From Escherichia coli (GTDB lineage Bacteria; Pseudomonadota; Gammaproteobacteria; Enterobacterales; Enterobacteriaceae), in assembly GCF_003334765.1 (NCBI RefSeq), contig NZ_QOWT01000002.1: a stretch of 64,000 nt of DNA. One strand, 5' to 3'. The notes beneath the pieces were generated by a model. That model was not told the origin of the DNA. It saw only the letters and a list, made by a program, of their open reading frames with translations, and did not search any database. The position numbers were made by a program, and so were the translations under genes. Every line of letters starts with the position of its first letter. Position 1 is the first letter of the stretch. Shown here piece by piece: positions 42,208-52,964 of the stretch.

Positions 42208-42903
42208 TTAATAAAGCAGTGAACCAAGCAGACCGATACCAGCACCGATACCAGCACCCCACGGAGTTGATGAACCAATTAATTTCGCAAGTCCAGCCCC
42301 AGCAATAGCACCAGACGCACCTCCGCCAATAGCAGATTGCATTGCTGATGGTCTGTTGGCATTTGCCGCTGCAAGAGCCGCACTTTGCTGCGAAATCTGA
42401 CTCATGTTGTTGGCATATGTCTGCCCGGCGTTTGCCTGACCTTGCAGTGCGCCAAGACCAATATTTGCCAGATTCTGGTAGTTGTTCATCTGACCAGATA
42501 GCCATTGCTGACCAAGCGTTGGTGCGATTGTTGCTAACTGATTACCGGTTGCAGTGGAACCCAATCCACCTGTTGCTTCCGCTGCCGCCAGACTCTGATA
42601 GCGAGCCTGACCAGCAAGATCTTTGTACTGCTGAGAGTTGTAATACTGGTTAAGTGCCTGACCTTGCCCTTCCAGAGACGATAAGTTCTCGAGGCTGCCG
42701 ACATACTTATCAGCCAGAGGAGTAAACGGCTTCAGGTTGTTCATGATGGTGTTGAACTGCTGATTTTGCAGGTCTGCGGCATACTTCTGAGCTTCTGCTG
42801 CATACTTTGCGCTTTTATCAGAACTGCCACCTTTCCCGCCTTTTTCAGGGCAATAAGGTTCCTCGCCGCGCAGTTTTCTGCCCAGCTTAAATGCATATAA
42901 CAT
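42208..42903 (-). CDS. P22 gp7-like ejection protein
   Basis: 231 aa from internal Met (MLYAFKLGRK) of a 460-aa ORF; Gly-rich hydrophobic C-terminus. Confidence 0.5.
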   Translation of the reverse strand: MLYAFKLGRKLRGEEPYCPEKGGKGGSSDKSAKYAAEAQKYAADLQNQQFNTIMNNLKPFTPLADKYVGSLENLSSLEGQGQALNQYYNSQQYKDLAGQARYQSLAAAEATGGLGSTATGNQLATIAPTLGQQWLSGQMNNYQNLANIGLGALQGQANAGQTYANNMSQISQQSAALAAANANRPSAMQSAIGGGASGAIAGAGLAKLIGSSTPWGAGIGAGIGLLGSLLY

Positions 42904-43590
42904 GGCTAACGCCGAGATGCCGTATTGCGCATAGCTCATACAATCAATTTCGCCTTCGCAAAGTACAACCGCCCTCACGCCAGCGTCCAGAGCCTGCCAT
43001 CCGAACAGACAAGGTTCGCAATCACCTTCTGCCATAATGACTTTCTTCCCGTCCGGGCGCTCAGTGCTGATTCGCTTGACCTGCAACAACTCACCATCGC
43101 GTTTGTACGGAATCACCAGAGCATCCAGTTCTCGCTCTCCATTCCACACCTTGCCGCTGACAACCTCGTAGCGCTTTACGATTTCTGGCGATATGCCACG
43201 CGATTGCAGGTACTCAAGATGGGATTCTGTTCTGGTAACGTAGCGGGCGATTTTCTTGCGATCAGGTCTGGAGAATTTCTTCTCACGTCTGGCATCGAAA
43301 TGGTGATCGTCATCCTTGATACCGAGAAATGCTTTCGCTTCCTGCATAGCCTGATGCAGGTTAATTCCACGACATGCCATCCACAAATCAAGCATGTCAC
43401 CGCCGTCTCCCTCAGCGAAATCAGCCCATTTTTTCTTGCCGCTAAGGTTGACCTTAAGGCTGTTTCCCTTGTCACCGTTGACGTTACCGGCAACCCACTC
43501 ATGCCCCTCTTTCTTGCCGTTTGGCAACAGGTGCGGAGCCACCCTGTCAACCTGCGCCCAAAGCAGGTCGCTAAGTTCACTTGGCGTCAT
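42904..43590 (-). pseudogene. truncated DNA primase fragment (toprim), reads in frame into gp7-like gene
   Basis: 229 aa ending VVLCEGEIDCMSYAQYGIS (DnaG-like toprim EGxxD...AQYGI), no helicase/C-terminal part. Confidence 0.55.
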
Positions 43591-45419: not shown

Positions 45420-46136
45420 ATGGAAAATAAAAAATCACTGACGACAGAACAGCTCGAAGACGCTAAGCGGCTTAAGGCTTTGTATGAGTCAAAAAAGAAA
45501 GAATTGGGAATAACCCAATACTCAATCGCTGATGAACTGGGTATCACCCAAGGAGCGGTAGGGCATTATCTTAATGGCAGAAACGCGCTAAACGTTGAGG
45601 TCGCATCTGGTTTTGCACGTTTGTTGCAAGTCTCAATTGCTGATTTTAGCCAGTCAATTGCTGCCAAGGTTGCAGAACAGGCAGAAAGCCTTAAGAGCGA
45701 TGCCAACGTAAGGTATGCAGGGGAATACAGAGCAGGAAAGAGGTATCCGGTGTTAAGCAGTATCCAGGCTGGCTCGTGGTGTGAAGCATGCGAACCATAC
45801 ACCATTAAAGACATAGATGTTTGGCTTGAGTCTGACGCGCATATTCAAGGTAATGCGTTCTGGCTTAAAGTGGAAGGTGATTCAATGACGGCACCGGTTG
45901 GGTTAAGCATTCCAGAGGGAACATTCGTTCTTTTCGATACCGGAAGGGAGGCGATCAACGGCAGCTTGGTCATAGCAAAACTTTCTGACTCTAACGAAGC
46001 AACATTCAAGAAGCTGATAATCGACGGCGGAAATAAATACCTCAAGGGACTTAACCCTGCATGGCCTCTCGTGCCAATCAATGGAAACTGCAAGATTATA
46101 GGCGTTGCAATTGAGACAAAACTAAGGCTGGTTTGA
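45420..46136 (+). CDS. cI: CI-like repressor (HTH plus S24 autopeptidase)
   Basis: 238 aa; N-terminal LTTEQLEDAKRLKALYESKKKELG; C-terminal GDSM...FKKL Ser/Lys dyad; Ala-Gly site. Confidence 0.9.
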   Translation: MENKKSLTTEQLEDAKRLKALYESKKKELGITQYSIADELGITQGAVGHYLNGRNALNVEVASGFARLLQVSIADFSQSIAAKVAEQAESLKSDANVRYAGEYRAGKRYPVLSSIQAGSWCEACEPYTIKDIDVWLESDAHIQGNAFWLKVEGDSMTAPVGLSIPEGTFVLFDTGREAINGSLVIAKLSDSNEATFKKLIIDGGNKYLKGLNPAWPLVPINGNCKIIGVAIETKLRLV

Positions 46137-46155: not shown

Positions 46156-46524
46156 ATGGTTGGAACCGCTATAGCAAGCTTTTTGGGGATGTTGGCAATC
46201 TCAACAATTTACGGCTTAGCGCATGCTTTTATTGCGAAATCTCTATCAGAAAAAATAAGCCAGGCTTGGGCGCATAGATCAGCTCGTTTCATGATTCTAG
46301 TGGTCATAGCAATACAAGGGATATCTGCATTTATCCTCTATGGATCAAGCTTATACCTGTTGTATCAAGGAGCGACATTTACGCCTTACACCAGTGATTA
46401 CGGAACTCTATACGATGGTAGTGAAGACATCTCTATGGCTTGGATCGTCTTTGGTTTATCTATGGCCGTGTCTGTTGTAGCAGACATCATTAAGGTAATT
46501 CTCGTCTTAACCTTCGCTGACTAA
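46156..46524 (+). CDS. small 4-TM membrane protein in rexB-equivalent position
   Basis: 122 aa, four hydrophobic segments, RBS aagggggg, starts 20 bp after cI stop. Confidence 0.55.
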   Translation: MVGTAIASFLGMLAISTIYGLAHAFIAKSLSEKISQAWAHRSARFMILVVIAIQGISAFILYGSSLYLLYQGATFTPYTSDYGTLYDGSEDISMAWIVFGLSMAVSVVADIIKVILVLTFAD

Positions 46525-46654
46525 CCCATAATCCCGGCAGCAATAGCTATCGGGATCCACTTCACATATCCCGCATAAAAAGCACTGAACAAGCAGATAC
46601 CGAAAAAATAAATATCCTTTGTATTCATTTGTTTATCATTATTTCATCAAAAAT

Positions 46655-46696
46655 AAATACCTTGGGTATTTACACAATAAAATACCTACAGTATTC
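46655..46696. promoter_or_regulatory. OL operators/PL
   Basis: aaataccttgggtattt and aaatacctacagtattc share the OR half-sites. Confidence 0.6.
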
Positions 46697-46743
46697 TTTA
46701 GCCATCAGCAGGACGCTGGAAGCCAAACGGAACAGATTGGCAG

Positions 46744-46784
46744 GCTCTTTAACATTGATGGGATTGTCCCGCCGAAATGCGGGA
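46744..46784 (+). promoter_or_regulatory. nutL (boxA plus boxB hairpin)
   Basis: gctctttaa then tcccgc-cgaaat-gcggga, identical boxB to nutR. Confidence 0.7.
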
Positions 46785-46891: not shown

Positions 46892-47188
46892 ATGATAATC
46901 GTTACTTATCTGGCTGATGATAACACCAGAAATCGCCGCAGAGCACGCAGACAGGCTCAACGTGAACAGGCAATGCAAGAACAGCGACTTGCGCGAAAAA
47001 TTGCGCTAAAGCTCTCTGGTTGCGTCAGAGCAGATAAAGCAGCATCACTCGGAAGCCTTCGCTGCAAGAAGGCAGAAGAAGTCGAGCGTAAACAGAACCG
47101 TATTTACTACCGCAAGCCACGCAGTGAAATGGGTGTGACTTGTGTTGGTCGCCAGAAAATGAAATTAGGCAGCAAACCACTTATTTGA
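46892..47188 (+). CDS. N: N-like antiterminator
   Basis: 98 aa; Arg-rich motif TRNRRRARRQAQREQ; C-terminus GVTCVGRQKMKLGSKPLI parallels lambda N. Confidence 0.85.
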   Translation: MIIVTYLADDNTRNRRRARRQAQREQAMQEQRLARKIALKLSGCVRADKAASLGSLRCKKAEEVERKQNRIYYRKPRSEMGVTCVGRQKMKLGSKPLI

Positions 47189-47864: not shown

Positions 47865-48392
47865 TTGATAGGATATAAAATGGCATTTATAAAGATTCTT
47901 GAATTAATTTCCCTAAGTGAGATTAATAATGTTGTCAAATATAACCCTATTTCTGGTGAGTTCACATGGCTAAAATCTTATGGAGCAAGAAAGATAGGTG
48001 GAACTGCCGGAACAATAACAACAAGCGGCTACTTAAGGATTTTCATTAACGGAAGACACTATGCTGCACATAGACTTGCATGGATTATCACTTTCGGTGT
48101 TGAGCCTGAAGGTATTATCGACCATATAAATGGCATAAAGACAGATAACAGAATTTGCAATCTGAGGCTTGCAACTTACTCACAGAATTCAATGAATAGT
48201 AAAATAAATACCCTCAACAAATCAGGTTGCAAAGGAGTCACATGGAAGAAGGAAAGTAGAAAGTGGGCTGCCTATGGGAAATTAAACGGGAAGAAAAAAC
48301 ATCTAGGGTACTTTAATGAATTAGAAGATGCCAAAAAAGCTTACTGCGACTTTGCCAGAAAGCATCACGGCGAATTCTACAGGAGCAAATAA
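47865..48392 (+). CDS. HNH endonuclease with AP2-like DNA-binding domain
   Basis: 175 aa; IDHINGIKTDNRICNLRLAT HNH motif; GVTWKK...YGK..GKKKHLGYF AP2-like. Confidence 0.75.
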   Translation: MIGYKMAFIKILELISLSEINNVVKYNPISGEFTWLKSYGARKIGGTAGTITTSGYLRIFINGRHYAAHRLAWIITFGVEPEGIIDHINGIKTDNRICNLRLATYSQNSMNSKINTLNKSGCKGVTWKKESRKWAAYGKLNGKKKHLGYFNELEDAKKAYCDFARKHHGEFYRSK

Positions 48393-48744: not shown

Positions 48745-49056
48745 ATGATGATTCTGACTCTGAATGATAAGCGTGAAATATCGCAAATAATCGCAAGTTT
48801 TACTGATGAAGATTACGAGCGAATCAACAGTGAAGTTGATCGCCTCTGCAAACGTTGCGACCCAATAAGCGAAATGCTTCGCTCATATAAACCAGATGAA
48901 CACACTAAGGACGCTATCGACTGGCTGGAAGATGATGACTGTAACTATCAGGAAAAAGCCGCTGAATGGTTCTGGGATGCAATAACCGAAAGAGTTAAGG
49001 CTGAATATGCCTTCGCAATATTTAAACGCAGACACATTTTTGGAGAAGCTGCATGA
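48745..49056 (+). CDS. hypothetical protein (gam/abc-equivalent position)
   Basis: 103 aa acidic, immediately upstream of recT. Confidence 0.4.
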   Translation: MMILTLNDKREISQIIASFTDEDYERINSEVDRLCKRCDPISEMLRSYKPDEHTKDAIDWLEDDDCNYQEKAAEWFWDAITERVKAEYAFAIFKRRHIFGEAA

Positions 49057-49955
49057 GCAATATCGTTGAATTCGTTAAACAGCAAGAGCAGTTATTCTGC
49101 GGAGCATTGACTGAACAGACGGTGACATGGGCTAAGGAAAGCCAGTTTGCAATTCAGTATTTCCAGAAAAACGATTACCTGGCTAAAACAGCACTGGCAA
49201 ATCCAACCAGCGCACAGAACGCCATCATCAATGTTGCGGCGATCGGCATCACCTTAAACCCGGCCAGCAAACTGGCTTATCTGGTTCCTCGCGACGGCAT
49301 GGTGTGCCTTGATATCAGTTACATGGGATTACTTCACCTTGCACAGTCGACAGGATCAATTAAGTGGGGGCAATGCAAACTGGTGTACTCAAACGACACC
49401 TATGAATCAAACGGCCTTGATTCAGCACCAACCCACAAATACAACGCATTTGGTAAGCGAGGCTCTATTGTTGGTGGTTATTGTACGGTTAAAACAGCAG
49501 ATGGTGACTACCTCACTGAAGAAATGAGTCTGGCAGAAATTAAAGCTGTGGAAGCAACGAGCAAGGCAAAGAATGGACCGTGGAAGACATTCTGGGAAGA
49601 GATGGCGCGTAAAACAATAGTTAAACGCGCCAGCAAATACTGGCCTAAAGCCCAGCGACTGGATAATGCCATTCACCTGCTTAACGAAGATGAAGGTATG
49701 CATCAGGAACCAGTTATGCCGCACAAATCAGAGGAAGATATCCGCGAAGATGAACGGAAACGCCAGCAGGAAATTATGGAAAAAGCACAACTTCTTTGTG
49801 ATGAAATGGCTCAGGCAGAAAACATGGATGATTTGAAGCGATATTTTGCAGAAGCATATCGCCTGACATCTGGAATGAAATTGCAGCAGAACGTACAAGC
49901 CATTTACATAGAATGCAAAGCGAAACTGGAGGTTGCCAGTGAGCAAACTGTATGA
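49053..49955 (+). CDS. recT: RecT-family single-strand annealing protein
   Basis: 300 aa; SKAKNGPWKTFWEEMARKTIVKRASKYWP matches RecT signature region. Confidence 0.8.
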   Translation: MSNIVEFVKQQEQLFCGALTEQTVTWAKESQFAIQYFQKNDYLAKTALANPTSAQNAIINVAAIGITLNPASKLAYLVPRDGMVCLDISYMGLLHLAQSTGSIKWGQCKLVYSNDTYESNGLDSAPTHKYNAFGKRGSIVGGYCTVKTADGDYLTEEMSLAEIKAVEATSKAKNGPWKTFWEEMARKTIVKRASKYWPKAQRLDNAIHLLNEDEGMHQEPVMPHKSEEDIREDERKRQQEIMEKAQLLCDEMAQAENMDDLKRYFAEAYRLTSGMKLQQNVQAIYIECKAKLEVASEQTV

Positions 49956-50421
49956 AATTGCCAATGAATACGCAAAATTGATGGATTCAGATTTAGAACC
50001 AGAGATGATTGCTGACACAATAGAAGGCATGGAAGGAGAATTTACCGATAAAATAGAGCAACTTCTTTCCGTCATTAAAAATGAATCTGGTTATGCTGAA
50101 CGCCTCAAGGAAGAGGCAAAGTCACTGAATGAGCGAGCCGCAGTAATTCAAAATAAGATTGACAGCATCAAATCATATATAGCGTCATCGCTTGAAATGG
50201 TTGGCAAGAAAAATATTCGAGCAGGTATTCACCAGGTAACAATCCGCAAACCGTCAGAAACTGTAGAAATCATCGACTCAAGCGCCCTTCCTCCTGAATA
50301 CCTTGAGTTTGAAACGACAATTAAAGCCGACAAACTGGCAATCAAGCACCAACTAAAAGCAGGAATAAATATTCCCGGTGCTCAACTCAAGGTTGGGAAA
50401 CCTTCACTTCTTATCAAATAA
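49933..50421 (+). CDS. Gp157-like protein
   Basis: 162 aa coiled-coil-rich, downstream of recT. Confidence 0.45.
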   Translation: MPVSKLYEIANEYAKLMDSDLEPEMIADTIEGMEGEFTDKIEQLLSVIKNESGYAERLKEEAKSLNERAAVIQNKIDSIKSYIASSLEMVGKKNIRAGIHQVTIRKPSETVEIIDSSALPPEYLEFETTIKADKLAIKHQLKAGINIPGAQLKVGKPSLLIK

Positions 50422-50432
50422 CGGTATCGCCT

Positions 50433-50747
50433 ATGAAAAAGACTCCATGGGAGAAATGGGAAGTCGATTTCTTGCGCGAAGTAGCGGCGACAATGCCAGT
50501 TGAAGTTATCGCTGAAAAACTGGAAAGGACTGAAAAAGCAGTAATGGCAAAAGCAACAAGGATTGGCGCTGACATTGTTAGCCGACTTCGTGGAAGACGA
50601 TGGACAAGAGCCGAAGTATCACTTTTCGGTAAGTTCTCCGCAGAAGAAATAGCAATTGCAACCTGCCGATCAATTTATTCAGTAAGAGCTATGCGATACA
50701 AGCTAAAAAAACTCGATGAAGAAAGAGCAGGCATACGAATAAATTAA
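50433..50747 (+). CDS. hypothetical protein
   Basis: 104 aa basic protein. Confidence 0.4.
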
Positions 50748-50927
50748 CAAAGAGGAATTAATCATGAGAGGGCTTGCATACAATCCCGGCATTCTTCCGG
50801 CAGAAATGATTATTCGCCAACGCGTAAAGCCAATGCCATCGAGAGAGGAATTGCTTAAGAGAAATAGTTTCGGTTCTGTTAATGACAACAAATATCTGAA
50901 TGCGATGTTGCGTAAAGGAGGCAAGCA

Positions 50928-51227
50928 GTGAGTGTATGTCTTATTGATAAACGTCGACGTGGGCAACAAATACCATCTGTTGGAATGCCGAATCACACAT
51001 GGTTTTGCGTACTTGATATCGATGGTATGGATGCGTTGGTTGACACTCGTCATTACTGCGATACCGCAACAGCTACTCCGGCGAAAGCAAAGAAAATGGC
51101 TGCTCTGATAGAAAACTGGACTCCACCTGATGGTTGGTGCAATGGGAATGATCGAGATTGGCACGAAAAAATGAAGGGCTATATCTGCGATTTTTTACGT
51201 AAATGCAACGGCTTCAGGGTGATGTGA
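50928..51227 (+). CDS. hypothetical protein
   Basis: 99 aa, GTG start preceded by aaaggagg RBS. Confidence 0.4.
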
Positions 51228-51228
51228 T

Positions 51229-51636
51229 ATGAACAAGATTGACTATCAGGCACTGCGTGAAGCGGCAGAGAAAGCCGGTGAAGATAAGTGGCAGGCTAAA
51301 AAAATAAATGGTGATTTTTTCGTTATTCGTCACGGTAGTTATACAAGACAGCATGGCTACACATCGTATCAACCCATTGCGGAGATTGATTGTAAGCAAG
51401 TCCGGGATTTTGTTGCCAAGGCTAATCCGGCTACCGTGCTGGAATTACTGGATGAACTGGAAGCAGCAAAAAAGCGCATTGCAGAACTGAAAGCGCGGGA
51501 AATACTGCTCCCGGAACGTAGCAGCATGCTTCATCGAACAGATTTTCACGATGATTACCAAACGGTAATGGCATACAAAGTTTCTGAAGTCATCGATGCA
51601 ATCCGCGCTACTGGCATTCGCATCAAAGGAGAGTGA
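51229..51636 (+). CDS. Ead/Ea22-like protein
   Basis: 135 aa, N-terminus MNKIDYQALREAAEKA. Confidence 0.5.
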   Translation: MNKIDYQALREAAEKAGEDKWQAKKINGDFFVIRHGSYTRQHGYTSYQPIAEIDCKQVRDFVAKANPATVLELLDELEAAKKRIAELKAREILLPERSSMLHRTDFHDDYQTVMAYKVSEVIDAIRATGIRIKGE

Positions 51637-51637
51637 T

Positions 51638-52267
51638 ATGAGCGCTATAACCAAAGAACGTATCAAATTATTCATTAAAAATCCGCTTGATAACGGACTT
51701 ACTCGTGGCGAACAAATGGAACTGGCACGAATTGCACTGGCATCACTGGAACGCGAACAGATTCGCCACGAGCATGCCAAATGGTCTGACTCCACATTTG
51801 GCTGCGTTGGCCCCATTGGTCCACTGAAACACCTCTCAAAAGAGGCACTGGAAGCCGCAGCCGAACCTGACGATCTCAGCGAGTGGGCTGATATGCAGTT
51901 CCTGTTGTGGGATGCACAGCGCCGTGCTGGTATCAGTGATGCTGAAATTACCGCTGCTATGGAAAATAAATTGAAGATCAACATGGAGCGCCAGTGGCCT
52001 GAGCCAAAAGATGGTGAGCCTCGCTTGCACATTAAAGAACCCGGCAACTCTCCGGTAACTCCGGATGGTTGGATAAGCTGTAGTGATCGAATGCCGGAAG
52101 ACACCAAAATGTTACTGGCATTTAGTCAAGGTAAAATCGTGGCCGCATATTGGAACTGGGTTATAAATCCAATTGATTACAAAAAATATAGAGCTTTCAC
52201 GTATTTATCAGGATATATCTTGGATGACGTAACTCACTGGATGCCGCTACCAGAGCCTCCACTTTGA
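51638..52267 (+). CDS. DUF550/DUF551-type phage protein
   Basis: starts MSAITKERIK with RBS aggagag; C-terminal THWMPLPEPP motif. Confidence 0.5.
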   Translation: MSAITKERIKLFIKNPLDNGLTRGEQMELARIALASLEREQIRHEHAKWSDSTFGCVGPIGPLKHLSKEALEAAAEPDDLSEWADMQFLLWDAQRRAGISDAEITAAMENKLKINMERQWPEPKDGEPRLHIKEPGNSPVTPDGWISCSDRMPEDTKMLLAFSQGKIVAAYWNWVINPIDYKKYRAFTYLSGYILDDVTHWMPLPEPPL

Positions 52268-52363
52268 AAGCGAAGCTTATACATATCTTTTACATCAGCA
52301 ATCTATTGTTAATCTCCAATCAATGTTACGTTGTCATCTCACTCATGCTTTGGAGGTAGTGAT

Positions 52364-52543
52364 ATGTCTTGTCCAAAATGCGGTTCTGGAAATATTGCAA
52401 AAGAAAAAACAATGCGTGGATGGTCTGGTGATTATGTGTGCTGCGATTGCGGATACAACGACTCTAAAGACGCATTTGGAGAGCGTGGTAAAAACGAGTT
52501 TGTTAAAATTAATAAAGAACGCGAAGGCAACGAAAAAAGCTAA
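52364..52543 (+). CDS. small zinc-ribbon protein
   Basis: MSCPKCGSG...CCDCG two CxxC pairs; RBS ggaggt. Confidence 0.5.
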   Translation: MSCPKCGSGNIAKEKTMRGWSGDYVCCDCGYNDSKDAFGERGKNEFVKINKEREGNEKS

Positions 52544-52608
52544 TTTATTTATTCATATATGAAAACAATGTAACCAATATTCGAATTGAAGAACTGAAAG
52601 AACACCAA

Positions 52609-52630
52609 GCCGCCTGATGGCGGTTTTTTA
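52609..52630 (+). terminator. rho-independent terminator
   Basis: ccgcc-tgat-ggcgg followed by T6. Confidence 0.7.
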
Positions 52631-52674
52631 TTACCTGATTTGCAGGTTCGATTCCCTATTCGGAGATAGCACTC

Positions 52675-52875
52675 ATGCAACACGAACTACAGCCTGATTC
52701 ACTGGTTGATTTGAAATTCATCATGGCCGATACTGGCTTCGGTAAAACCTTCATCTATGACCGGATTAAGTCCGGCGACCTGCCAAAAGCCAAAGTTATC
52801 CACGGGCGAGCAAGATGGTTATATCGTGACCATTGTGAATTCAAAAATAAGCTCTTAAGCCGCGCCAATGGGTAA
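52675..52875 (+). CDS. torI: excisionase / tor operon inhibitor TorI
   Basis: 66 aa Xis-like winged helix at prophage end adjacent to dsdC. Confidence 0.85.
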   Translation: MQHELQPDSLVDLKFIMADTGFGKTFIYDRIKSGDLPKAKVIHGRARWLYRDHCEFKNKLLSRANG

Positions 52876-52948: not shown

Positions 52949-52964
52949 CTGCAGGGGACACCAT
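52949..52964. other. attR core
   Basis: ctgcaggggacaccat, direct repeat of argW 3' end. Confidence 0.8.

Follow-up and report, generated by a model that had tools for sequence, protein, structure and literature searches.

Do the small genes that separate the recombination genes of a lambdoid prophage from its excisionase gene form a system of their own, and what might they do? The question is raised by six open reading frames (ORFs) at positions 50433–52543 of a 64,000-nucleotide (nt) stretch of Escherichia coli DNA (the window; contig NZ_QOWT01000002.1 of assembly GCF_003334765.1), which lie within a prophage integrated at the tRNA gene argW. An initial annotation had described them as accessory cargo of the early region, of a type in which host-takeover or defense genes are found. 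Judged by homology and synteny, the segment is the "ea" region of phage P22, equivalent to the exo-xis region of phage λ by position and partly by genes: a region of a familiar kind, whose gene families are known and of which public collections contain an identical copy. In our view it is highly probable that the six genes form the non-essential accessory stretch of the early-left (PL) operon that lies farthest from the promoter, the part named ea in P22 and exo-xis in λ, and equally so that they are independent mosaic cassettes and not one system. Gene structure, family membership, synteny, mosaicism, and conservation of catalytic residues are observed directly and carry this account.

Six small genes with phage relatives

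The six plus-strand ORFs fill the interval exactly, from the start of ORF1 to the stop of ORF6, and they lie, as first described, between the recombination module (RecT and Gp157 genes) and torI (Table 1). Their junctions are as tight as had been noted, with a 4-nt overlap between ORF2 and ORF3 (GTGA) and gaps of a single nucleotide between ORF3 and ORF4 and between ORF4 and ORF5. The accompanying claim of good ribosome-binding sites holds for ORF2, ORF3, ORF5, and ORF6 but not for ORF1 and ORF4, whose Shine-Dalgarno sequences are weak. For ORF5, the ATG at 51638 was chosen over an in-frame upstream ATG at 51596 because of its AAGGAG Shine-Dalgarno and the match to the N terminus of P22 EaA.

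A phage protein family was found for each ORF, with PHROG E values from 5e-23 to 3e-55. Domain searches, which the initial annotation had proposed as a check, thereby also placed the three ORFs that it had left unnamed, and they bore out the identities it had given to the others: ORF4 as Ead_Ea22 (PF13935), ORF5 as DUF550 plus DUF551, and ORF6 as a zinc ribbon with the pattern CPKC...CCDC. RefSeq annotates the same six coding sequences in related E. coli genomes, and each gene is at least 95% identical to RefSeq-annotated proteins. With family scores this far past chance, the six ORFs are, on sequence criteria, real genes. NCBIfam offered no curated family for ORF1–5 and only sub-threshold zinc-ribbon matches for ORF6. 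Two minus-strand ORFs (51445–52107 and 50703–51164) were set aside as shadows of the plus-strand genes, their best family match (E 0.0013) being unconvincing. Some of the database proteins P0002, P0056, P0059, and P0060 are read-through or frameshift fusions of adjacent cassettes (ORF1 with DUF2737; DUF2737 with DUF7739), and the apparent diversity of these small-gene families is partly a sequencing or assembly artifact.

BLASTP further showed what had been missed, namely that these are classical phage genes: ORF2 corresponds to P22 orf56 and HK620 hkaI, ORF4 to the eaD/hkaG family, ORF5 to eaA/hkaE, and ORF6 to eaG/hkaD (HK620 gene names follow the annotation of Clark et al. 2001, NC_002730). 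Nothing equivalent to ORF1 or ORF3 occurs in P22, HK620, λ, or the K-12 prophage CPS-53. The gene order is abc2-orf56-eaE-orf45-eaF-eaD-eaI-eaA-eaG-eaC-xis-int in P22 and abc2-hkaI-hkaH-hkaG-hkaF-hkaE-hkaD-xis(TorI)-attP-int in HK620.

A probable accessory part of the early-left operon

On the plus strand of the prophage, PHROG annotation gives the order cI, a gene of unknown function, N, a second gene of unknown function, an HNH endonuclease gene, cIII, kil, RecT, and Gp157/Gam-like, after which come ORF1–6 and torI. This order, together with the named ea and hka homologues and the mosaic character described below, upholds the description of the segment as accessory cargo in an early region. 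Between cI (45420–46136) and N, two inverted repeats (46654–46672 and 46680–46695) overlap a promoter-like site, a layout that makes this the probable PL promoter with its OL operators. The nutL-like site beyond it combines a boxA-like GCTCTTTAACA, for which the lambdoid consensus is CGCTCTTTAACA, with a boxB-like hairpin. No promoter-like site was found inside 50433–52543, and the sole plus-strand terminator-like hairpin past the region, a GC hairpin followed by a T-run at 52607–52626, stands after ORF6.

From this arrangement, the expected course of expression can be outlined. In a lysogen, cI would repress PL and ORF1–ORF6 would be silent. After derepression, N-modified RNA polymerase starting at PL would pass nutL, the HNH gene, cIII, kil, RecT, and Gp157, and its transcript would then continue across ORF1–ORF6 into torI. 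The six proteins would appear early in induction, along with the recombination and excision functions.

Distribution and mosaicism

Of 5426 complete E. coli genomes, 3743 (69%) match parts of a 2.4-kb query covering the segment, and only five of the 5426 hold at least 80% of it at one place, as fits a mosaic of independent cassettes. Individual combinations recur in other settings. A prophage at the λ attachment (att) site carries ORF2–ORF6 next to erf/abc2 as one block of 99.1% identity, and in strain ET151, RecT-Gp157-ORF1 stand next to a different, longer Ea22 gene. Across 80 IMG/VR loci selected for carrying EaG (L008–L087, with P22 as L007), ORF2 is present in 52, an ORF5-like gene in 34, torI in 33, ORF4 in 14, ORF1 in 10, and ORF3 in six. 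Homologues of λ orf60a, orf61, and orf63 occur in 10–14 of these 80 contigs; the ea and exo-xis regions therefore share one gene pool. One 17.7-kb entry, IMGVR_UViG_2562617151_000007, is 100% identical across 49933–52875 and is probably the same prophage.

Predicted activities of the encoded proteins

The statement in the initial annotation that none of the six genes has a known role is right in so far as these exact proteins have no experimentally demonstrated role. It goes too far with respect to their relatives, which include characterized DUF550 pyrophosphohydrolases (PMC8342488, PMC12884076) and pro-lysogeny Ea22 proteins (PMC7093339, PMC10834534), besides the weak match of EaG to Lar. 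Support for a predicted activity falls in the order ORF5, ORF4, ORF1, ORF6, ORF3, and for ORF2 there is none.

ORF5 is a short EaA protein in which a leader and linker precede two Pfam domains: a full-length DUF550 (dATP-dGTP_PPHyd, PF04447; E 5.2e-42, residues 42–137, model positions 1–96 of 97) and DUF551 (PF04448; E 7.9e-21, residues 144–208). E69, E72, E82, and D85 align with E35, E38, E50, and D53 of MazZ from phage S-2L (PDB 7ODY), the metal ligands of that enzyme (PMC8342488). K111, N115, R118, and W120 likewise align with MazZ K76, N80, R83, and W85, and D92 aligns with D60, which reads the guanine 2-amino group (PMC8342488). The DUF550 protein of Acinetobacter phage SH-Ab 15497 is described in two reports as hydrolyzing dATP and dGTP (PMC8342488, PMC12884076). 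Given the full-length domain, the aligned residues, and this activity, ORF5 is predicted to be an active Mg/Mn-dependent purine (deoxy)nucleoside triphosphate ((d)NTP) pyrophosphohydrolase of the MazZ/DUF550 type that acts on nucleotide pools. The MazZ and SH-Ab 15497 proteins share with it the PF04447 family, and MazZ also the four acidic ligands and the K/N/R/W pocket. The fusion differs: DUF550 is joined here to the leader and DUF551, not to DUF5664.

The family to which ORF5 belongs is modular. In all 78 loci compared, the gene upstream of eaG ends in DUF551 (...HWMPLPEPPL) exactly 96 nt from eaG. These 78 loci encode 62 distinct EaA/HkaE proteins of 53–449 amino acids (aa), built from a few alternative N-terminal leaders (one common to K-12 YfdT) and swappable middle cassettes. 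The linker ...ARIALASLE(A/R)E... is present in 50 of the 62 proteins and the DUF550 cassette in 25 of the 78 loci; DUF551 comes in several variants, all ending in PEPPL. DUF551 has also been found in K-12 YfdS and in an Ea22 variant of a Shiga toxin (Stx) phage (PMC4776307, PMC10834534). We considered a recurrent slot for a nucleotide hydrolase plus DUF551 and rejected it: the 80 EaG loci contain no YfdR-like HD protein, which leaves the K-12 parallel anecdotal. RefSeq/PGAP splits the ORF5 frame into a "DUF550, incomplete" pseudogene and a "dATP/dGTP pyrophosphohydrolase domain-containing protein" starting at an internal ATT (loci L001, 4510–5139, and L002, 3887–4516), yet the 209-codon frame is unbroken, and in PK8217 it is identical to that of the window. 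The split is probably an artifact of the mosaic N-terminal leader.

ORF4 is a short Ead/Ea22-like protein (PF13935, E 1e-17, residues 3–108); over its last 66 aa it shows 83% identity to HK620 HkaG. An N-terminal I-x-x-Q-A-L-R-E-A-A-E and a C-terminal GI(R/K)(I/V)KGE are common to ORF4, λ Ea22, P22 EaD, and HkaG. BLASTP aligns λ Ea22 with ORF4 residues 1–84 (31% identity, E 4e-4), and the terminal GIRIKGE is also shared; by the same comparison, ORF4 lacks the λ-type dimeric alpha-beta C-terminal domain, which in λ Ea22 has been solved by nuclear magnetic resonance (PMC10834534). Ea22 of λ and Stx phages is tetrameric and favors lysogeny (PMC7093339, PMC10834534). By analogy, ORF4 is likely an Ea22-type oligomeric protein that would bias the lysis-lysogeny decision or the outcome of induction.

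ORF1 matches phrog_11492 (E 5e-23) and phrog_323 ("transcriptional regulator, D5-like"; E 3e-20) and no Pfam family at E<0.001; with an isoelectric point (pI) of 10.0, it is basic. It has 532 relatives at an E value of at most 1e-3, many of which carry 3–10 copies of a unit of ~45 aa, and one of which, 807 aa long, has a large N-terminal region without repeats. The AlphaFold2 (AF2) model of ORF1 (predicted local distance difference test, pLDDT, 84) consists of two three-helix bundles. The repeat signature W-x(3)-E-x(2)-[FL]-L ... I-[AS]-E-x-L-x-R-[ST] is present, and both halves align with successive repeats of the multi-repeat relatives. BLASTP of one half against the other, tried as evidence of internal duplication, gave no alignment, so that the repeat is seen only via those relatives. 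Relatives of 150 aa carry a precomputed PF08281 (sigma-70 region 4). A Foldseek search of the PDB returned no significant match, the top ones being bipartite helix-turn-helix (HTH) proteins (Pax6, Mos1) with E values of at least 0.097, and sequence searches of the PDB with ORF1 and ORF4 gave nothing meaningful. The model suggests that ORF1 is a probable tandem Myb/SANT-like HTH DNA-binding regulator.

ORF6 is EaG, 95% identical to the P22 protein and 98% to HkaD, with a four-cysteine zinc ribbon formed by C3, C6, C26/C27, and C29. Its best Pfam match is Lar_restr_allev (PF14354; independent E value, i-E, 7.6e-5; 23.3 bits), and many EaG clusters carry a precomputed PF14354. BLASTP against K-12 RalR/Lar gives 30% identity over 54 aa (E 0.001) with both cysteine pairs in register, and both proteins are small four-cysteine zinc ribbons (64 aa for RalR, 59 for EaG). 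The hhalign probability is only 17.8%, however, reciprocal PHROG cross-matches reach E values of just 0.2–0.35, and EaG has I-N-K-E where K-12 RalR has W-N-K-R, a comparison made with RalR only and not with the family profile. A deeper EaG profile brought no gain, as its "distant" homologues were mostly frameshifted copies. Lar/RalR of the Rac prophage is said to alleviate restriction, in work attributed to King and Murray (1995). In Rac (recT-ralR-rcbA-xisR-intR), ralR occupies the same slot as eaG, between recombination genes and xis; unlike Rac ralR, eaG has no rcbA- or ralA-like neighbor. EaG is possibly Lar-like, and hence a modulator of type I restriction, which we treat as a lead and not as family membership.

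ORF3 belongs to DUF7739 (PF24881, E 8.3e-21), and its model is that of a small alpha/beta protein, predicted with confidence (pLDDT 86; predicted template modeling score, pTM, 0.77). Outside its own family, it finds an SMI1/KNR4 family protein (E 9e-5), a barstar-domain protein, and an Imm70 protein in the AlphaFold database (AFDB), and the model resembles CdiI, DMP12, and an SMI1/KNR4 family protein at 7–10% identity, a level at which fold does not prove homology. A protein-binding inhibitor with an immunity-type fold would be a reasonable guess from the model. We rejected an acidic DNA mimic like DMP12 on charge (pI 8.25). ORF2 is DUF2737 (PF10930, E 1.7e-31); found in 52 of the 80 EaG contigs, it is a conserved left-hand "bookend" of the variable region.

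A conserved block around eaG

At the other end of the region, the last ~30 nt of the DUF551 gene, the spacer that precedes eaG, eaG itself, and the DNA downstream to the terminator form a block of ~400 nt (52236–52640) in which E. coli prophages agree with Salmonella phage P22 at ~97% identity, while the genes leftward of it have strongly diverged or been swapped. This block may act as a recombination bookend. The spacer has 10.4% variable columns, against 11.7% for eaG and 8.2% for the downstream DNA; since it is not more conserved than its flanks, the apparent ultra-conservation is a property of the whole block, which on these figures may simply be young or homogenized. Within eaG, 12 variable columns fall at third codon positions and 4 and 5 at first and second positions (81 loci). 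We also considered the spacer as a noncoding RNA or regulatory element and rejected this, as it has no Rfam match, no promoter-like site, and no conservation above its flanks.

At 52264–52359 on the plus strand lies a 31-codon, strongly hydrophobic ORF, (M)KAKLIHIFYISNLLLISNQCYVVISLMLWR, whose TTG start overlaps the ORF5 stop (TTGA) and which ends 4 nt 5' of the eaG ATG. The frame is uninterrupted in P22 and in each of the 78 loci. It lacks a Shine-Dalgarno sequence, PHROG gave no match for it, and variation is too low for a coding test. As a gene it is unproven.

Alternative readings: counter-defense, toxin-antitoxin, defense, and DNA modification

Several points count against the early-left accessory account and the activities proposed with it. 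From the layout we infer transcription from PL and read-through into the six genes; every biochemical or physiological role proposed for the six is likewise inferred. The prophage is defective (see below), and the genes may have no current selective role in this strain. The pairwise alignment of ORF5 with MazZ is weak (E 0.39), though its motif register is consistent, and the functional calls for ORF1, ORF3, and ORF6 draw on weak or fold-level similarity.

The strongest alternative sharpens the early-left account and does not exclude it. It takes the segment for an anti-defense or host-takeover island in which EaG would be of Lar type and alleviate type I restriction, ORF3 would be a SUKH/CdiI-like inhibitor of a host nuclease or toxin, and ORF5 a protein that reshapes dNTP pools, with the shift shutting down host replication or blunting nucleotide-dependent immunity. 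Favorable to it are the PF14354 matches of EaG, its resemblance to RalR, and the shared slot in Rac; the likeness of the ORF3 model to CdiI, DMP12, and an SMI1/KNR4 family protein; and the presence of abc2 and ral in the same operon of related prophages. Overexpression of yfdQRST, which stand at the same position in K-12, inhibits DnaA-dependent replication initiation, and YfdR binds DnaA (PMC4776307). The Lar link is nonetheless marginal on the hhalign (18%), PHROG, and I-N-K-E comparisons given above, ORF3 is neither a DNA mimic nor a proven homologue of the proteins that it resembles, and ORF1–6 have no BLASTP similarity to YfdP, YfdQ, YfdR, YfdS, or YfdT (nothing below E 0.8), for which homology was rejected. 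On balance, we think this reading unlikely, if worth keeping in view.

A more specific version, to which we give still less credence, holds that the cassette string is partly a counter-defense toolkit. DUF7739 (ORF3) would be a SUKH/CdiI-like inhibitor of a nuclease-type host immunity protein, and EaG a divergent Lar-type modulator of type I restriction; if so, thousands of E. coli and Salmonella prophages would carry such a modulator. The EaA family would be a modular delivery scaffold, ordered as leader, IALASLE linker, exchangeable cargo, and DUF551, in which DUF551 directs various enzymatic cargoes to a single host machine, for instance the replisome or DnaA, in an echo of the effect of YfdR and YfdS on DnaA in K-12. 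The cargo here would be a MazZ-like dGTP/dATP pyrophosphohydrolase.

It is improbable that EaG is a RalR-like DNase toxin held in check by an RNA antitoxin or a small hydrophobic peptide that the invariant flanking DNA, either the spacer or the downstream block, would encode, in a type I toxin-antitoxin pair. Among named proteins RalR is the nearest to EaG, and it has been reported as a DNase toxin with a small RNA antitoxin (PMC4041452); the spacer keeps its length of exactly 96 nt in 78 of 78 loci, matches P22 at 95 of 96 positions, and holds the invariably open TTG ORF. Yet the spacer is conserved no better than eaG or the DNA downstream, it contains no Rfam family and no promoter-like site on either strand, the small ORF has neither Shine-Dalgarno sequence nor PHROG match, and homology between EaG and RalR is marginal.

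Prophage accessory regions often hold defense genes. This, and the fact that all six genes are intact despite the defective state of the prophage, could favor lysogen-expressed anti-phage cargo that protects the host, a reading we consider very improbable. PADLOC-DB v2 gave no match for five of the six ORFs and, for EaG, only zinc-ribbon noise against Cas12 (E 0.03–0.09). The same genes occupy the same operon position in plaque-forming P22 and HK620. Because a PL early-lytic operon is repressed in a lysogen and no internal promoter-like site is present, the six genes are poorly placed to protect the host, and the earlier suggestion of defense genes finds no backing here. PADLOC on nine neighboring proteins matched only the HNH gene, as a homing endonuclease. 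A better candidate for prophage defense than ORF1–6, though itself without a PADLOC match, is the 122-aa gene of unknown function at 46156–46524 on the plus strand (phrog_6534, E 2e-78), 3' of cI and 5' of PL, a slot that in lambdoid phages holds exclusion genes expressed in the lysogen, rex or sieB for example.

P22 and HK620 have ordinary DNA, and the setting of ORF5, unlike that of the Z-genome enzymes, is likewise a temperate lambdoid phage whose DNA is ordinary. Participation of ORF5 in a 2-aminoadenine (Z-genome) or other DNA-modification pathway, which the shared Pfam family and the conserved catalytic residues and D60 equivalent might suggest (PMC8342488, PMC12884076), is effectively refuted, since no purZ, datZ, or dpoZ was matched by PHROG among the prophage ORFs searched (the larger ORFs and the operon genes) and the DUF550 cassette is optional in the EaG-linked loci (25 of 78).

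On the early-left accessory account, the segment in itself matters little, as a textbook example of the mosaic accessory segments that lambdoid prophages carry. Its residual value lies in how common these genes are among complete E. coli genomes. Any novelty would come from a possible Lar-like activity of EaG, a possible inhibitor role for DUF7739, and the modular scaffold of the EaA/DUF551 proteins.

The prophage and its neighboring genes

By gene content, the host element is a P22/Sf6/HK620-type (Lederbergvirus-like) prophage at argW, the CPS-53/KplE1 integration site of E. coli K-12. The att sequence is the same 15 bp that the K-12 annotation calls pawZ, and dsdC-dsdX-dsdA lie beyond the att core. 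On the minus strand, PHROG annotation identified a tailspike, Ant, ejection proteins, an O-like replication initiator, and cII; no lysis, terminase, portal, or coat gene was found in the prophage by the same means. The first ~227 aa of a 460-aa minus-strand ORF at 42208–43590 match DNA primase/helicase families, and its last ~230 aa match a P22-type DNA-ejection protein (phrog_598). The ORF looks like the scar of an in-frame deletion by which the other replication genes were lost together with the nin, lysis, terminase, portal, and coat genes. Because of this primase/ejection fusion and the missing late genes, we take the argW prophage (~20.6 kb) to be a defective deletion derivative.

Table 1. 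Positions of the six ORFs and of other features of the prophage in the window
Feature	Position	Strand	Remarks
argW, tRNA-Arg CCU	32271–32345		followed by intS-like integrase gene
Putative PL promoter and OL palindromes	46654–46697	+	TTTACA-17-TATTCT at 46669–46697
nutL-like site	46744–46784	+	boxA-like GCTCTTTAACA, then boxB-like hairpin CCCGC-CGAAAT-GCGGG
N-like antiterminator gene	46892–47188	+	phrog_271, E 4.7e-35
HNH (homing-type) endonuclease gene	47865–48392	+	phrog_99, E 1e-68; PADLOC "HEase", E 5e-5
RecT recombinase gene	49053–49955	+	RefSeq name of homologue in ET151
Siphovirus Gp157 / Mu Gam-like gene	49933–50421	+	phrog_253, E 5e-54; RefSeq name
ORF1	50433–50747	+	104 aa; starts 11 nt past Gp157 stop; weak Shine-Dalgarno
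ORF2	50764–50931	+	55 aa; Shine-Dalgarno AGAGGA
ORF3	50928–51227	+	99 aa; GTG start; Shine-Dalgarno AAGGAGG
ORF4	51229–51636	+	135 aa; weak Shine-Dalgarno
ORF5	51638–52267	+	209 aa; Shine-Dalgarno AAGGAG
ORF5, leader and IALASLE linker	51638–51760	+	
ORF5, DUF550 domain	51761–52048	+	Pfam
ORF5, DUF551 domain	52067–52261	+	Pfam
ORF5-ORF6 spacer	52268–52363		96 nt; 95/96 identical to P22
ORF6	52364–52543	+	59 aa; Shine-Dalgarno GGAGG; 96-nt spacer 5' of ORF6
torI (excisionase / TorR inhibitor)	52675–52875	+	last gene before attR; 100% identical to K-12 TorI and HK620 HkaC
att core CTGCAGGGGACACCAT	52949–52964	+	repeats argW 3' end (32331–32346)

A 16-nt copy of argW sequence, TTGCAGGTTCGATTCC, stands at 52640–52655, just upstream of torI, within the prophage and ~300 nt short of the att core. 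Its source within argW (32316–32331) is immediately 5' of the att core, and the copy is probably shared with K-12 CPS-53, because homology to CPS-53 starts at ~52625. Adjoining intS, a plus-strand ORF at 33857–34528 (223 aa, unknown function, phrog_16087, no PADLOC match) occupies the slot in which K-12 CPS-53 and P22 carry gtrABC-type O-antigen modification genes. The HNH gene is inserted in the PL operon, with N-proximal genes on one side and cIII on the other.

Comparison with known systems

The prophage at the same argW-dsdC site of K-12, CPS-53/KplE1, shares with the present one only int and the torI/att ends: nucleotide identity is 97% at the argW-intS end and 99% at the torI-attR-dsdC end, and the interiors are unrelated. 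Upstream of torI, K-12 has yfdP-yfdQ-yfdR-yfdS-yfdT in the position of ORF1–6. YfdS carries DUF551 and YfdT an EaA-type leader, and where K-12 encodes an HD-domain nucleotidase (YfdR), the prophage here encodes the MazG-like DUF550.

The exo-xis region of λ and Stx phages (orf60a, orf63, orf61, ea22, ea8.5) fills the same slot of the PL operon, from the recombination genes to xis. It includes a member of the Ea22 family, as here, while orf60a, orf61, orf63, and ea8.5 are absent from the present segment. The λ exo-xis genes are non-essential (PMC10695390) and affect lysogenization and induction (PMC3824215, PMC7093339).

The orf56 product of P22 is 77% identical to ORF2, and EaD is the founder of the Ead/Ea22 family. 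P22 EaA aligns with ORF5 at 56% across the leader and DUF550, and also has DUF551, but at 317 aa it contains two additional inserts relative to the 209-aa ORF5. P22 further differs in having eaC between eaG and xis, in its int/att module, and in lacking homologues of ORF1 and ORF3.

HK620 differs in being a complete phage, whereas the prophage here lacks late genes, and in its recombination genes, which are Sak4/SSB/Abc2 in place of RecT/Gp157. It has hkaH and hkaF where ORF3 (DUF7739) stands, and no ORF1. HkaE belongs to the ORF5 family (38% identity) and has the same leader and DUF551 without the DUF550 cassette. The closeness to HkaG and HkaD given above extends to HkaI, which is 91% identical to ORF2. 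In HK620, as in Shigella phage Sf6 (genes 19–23), these genes follow the recombination and anti-RecBCD genes and precede xis(TorI)-attP-intS, just as they do here, and HK620 has the same attachment module, with a TorI that is 100% identical.

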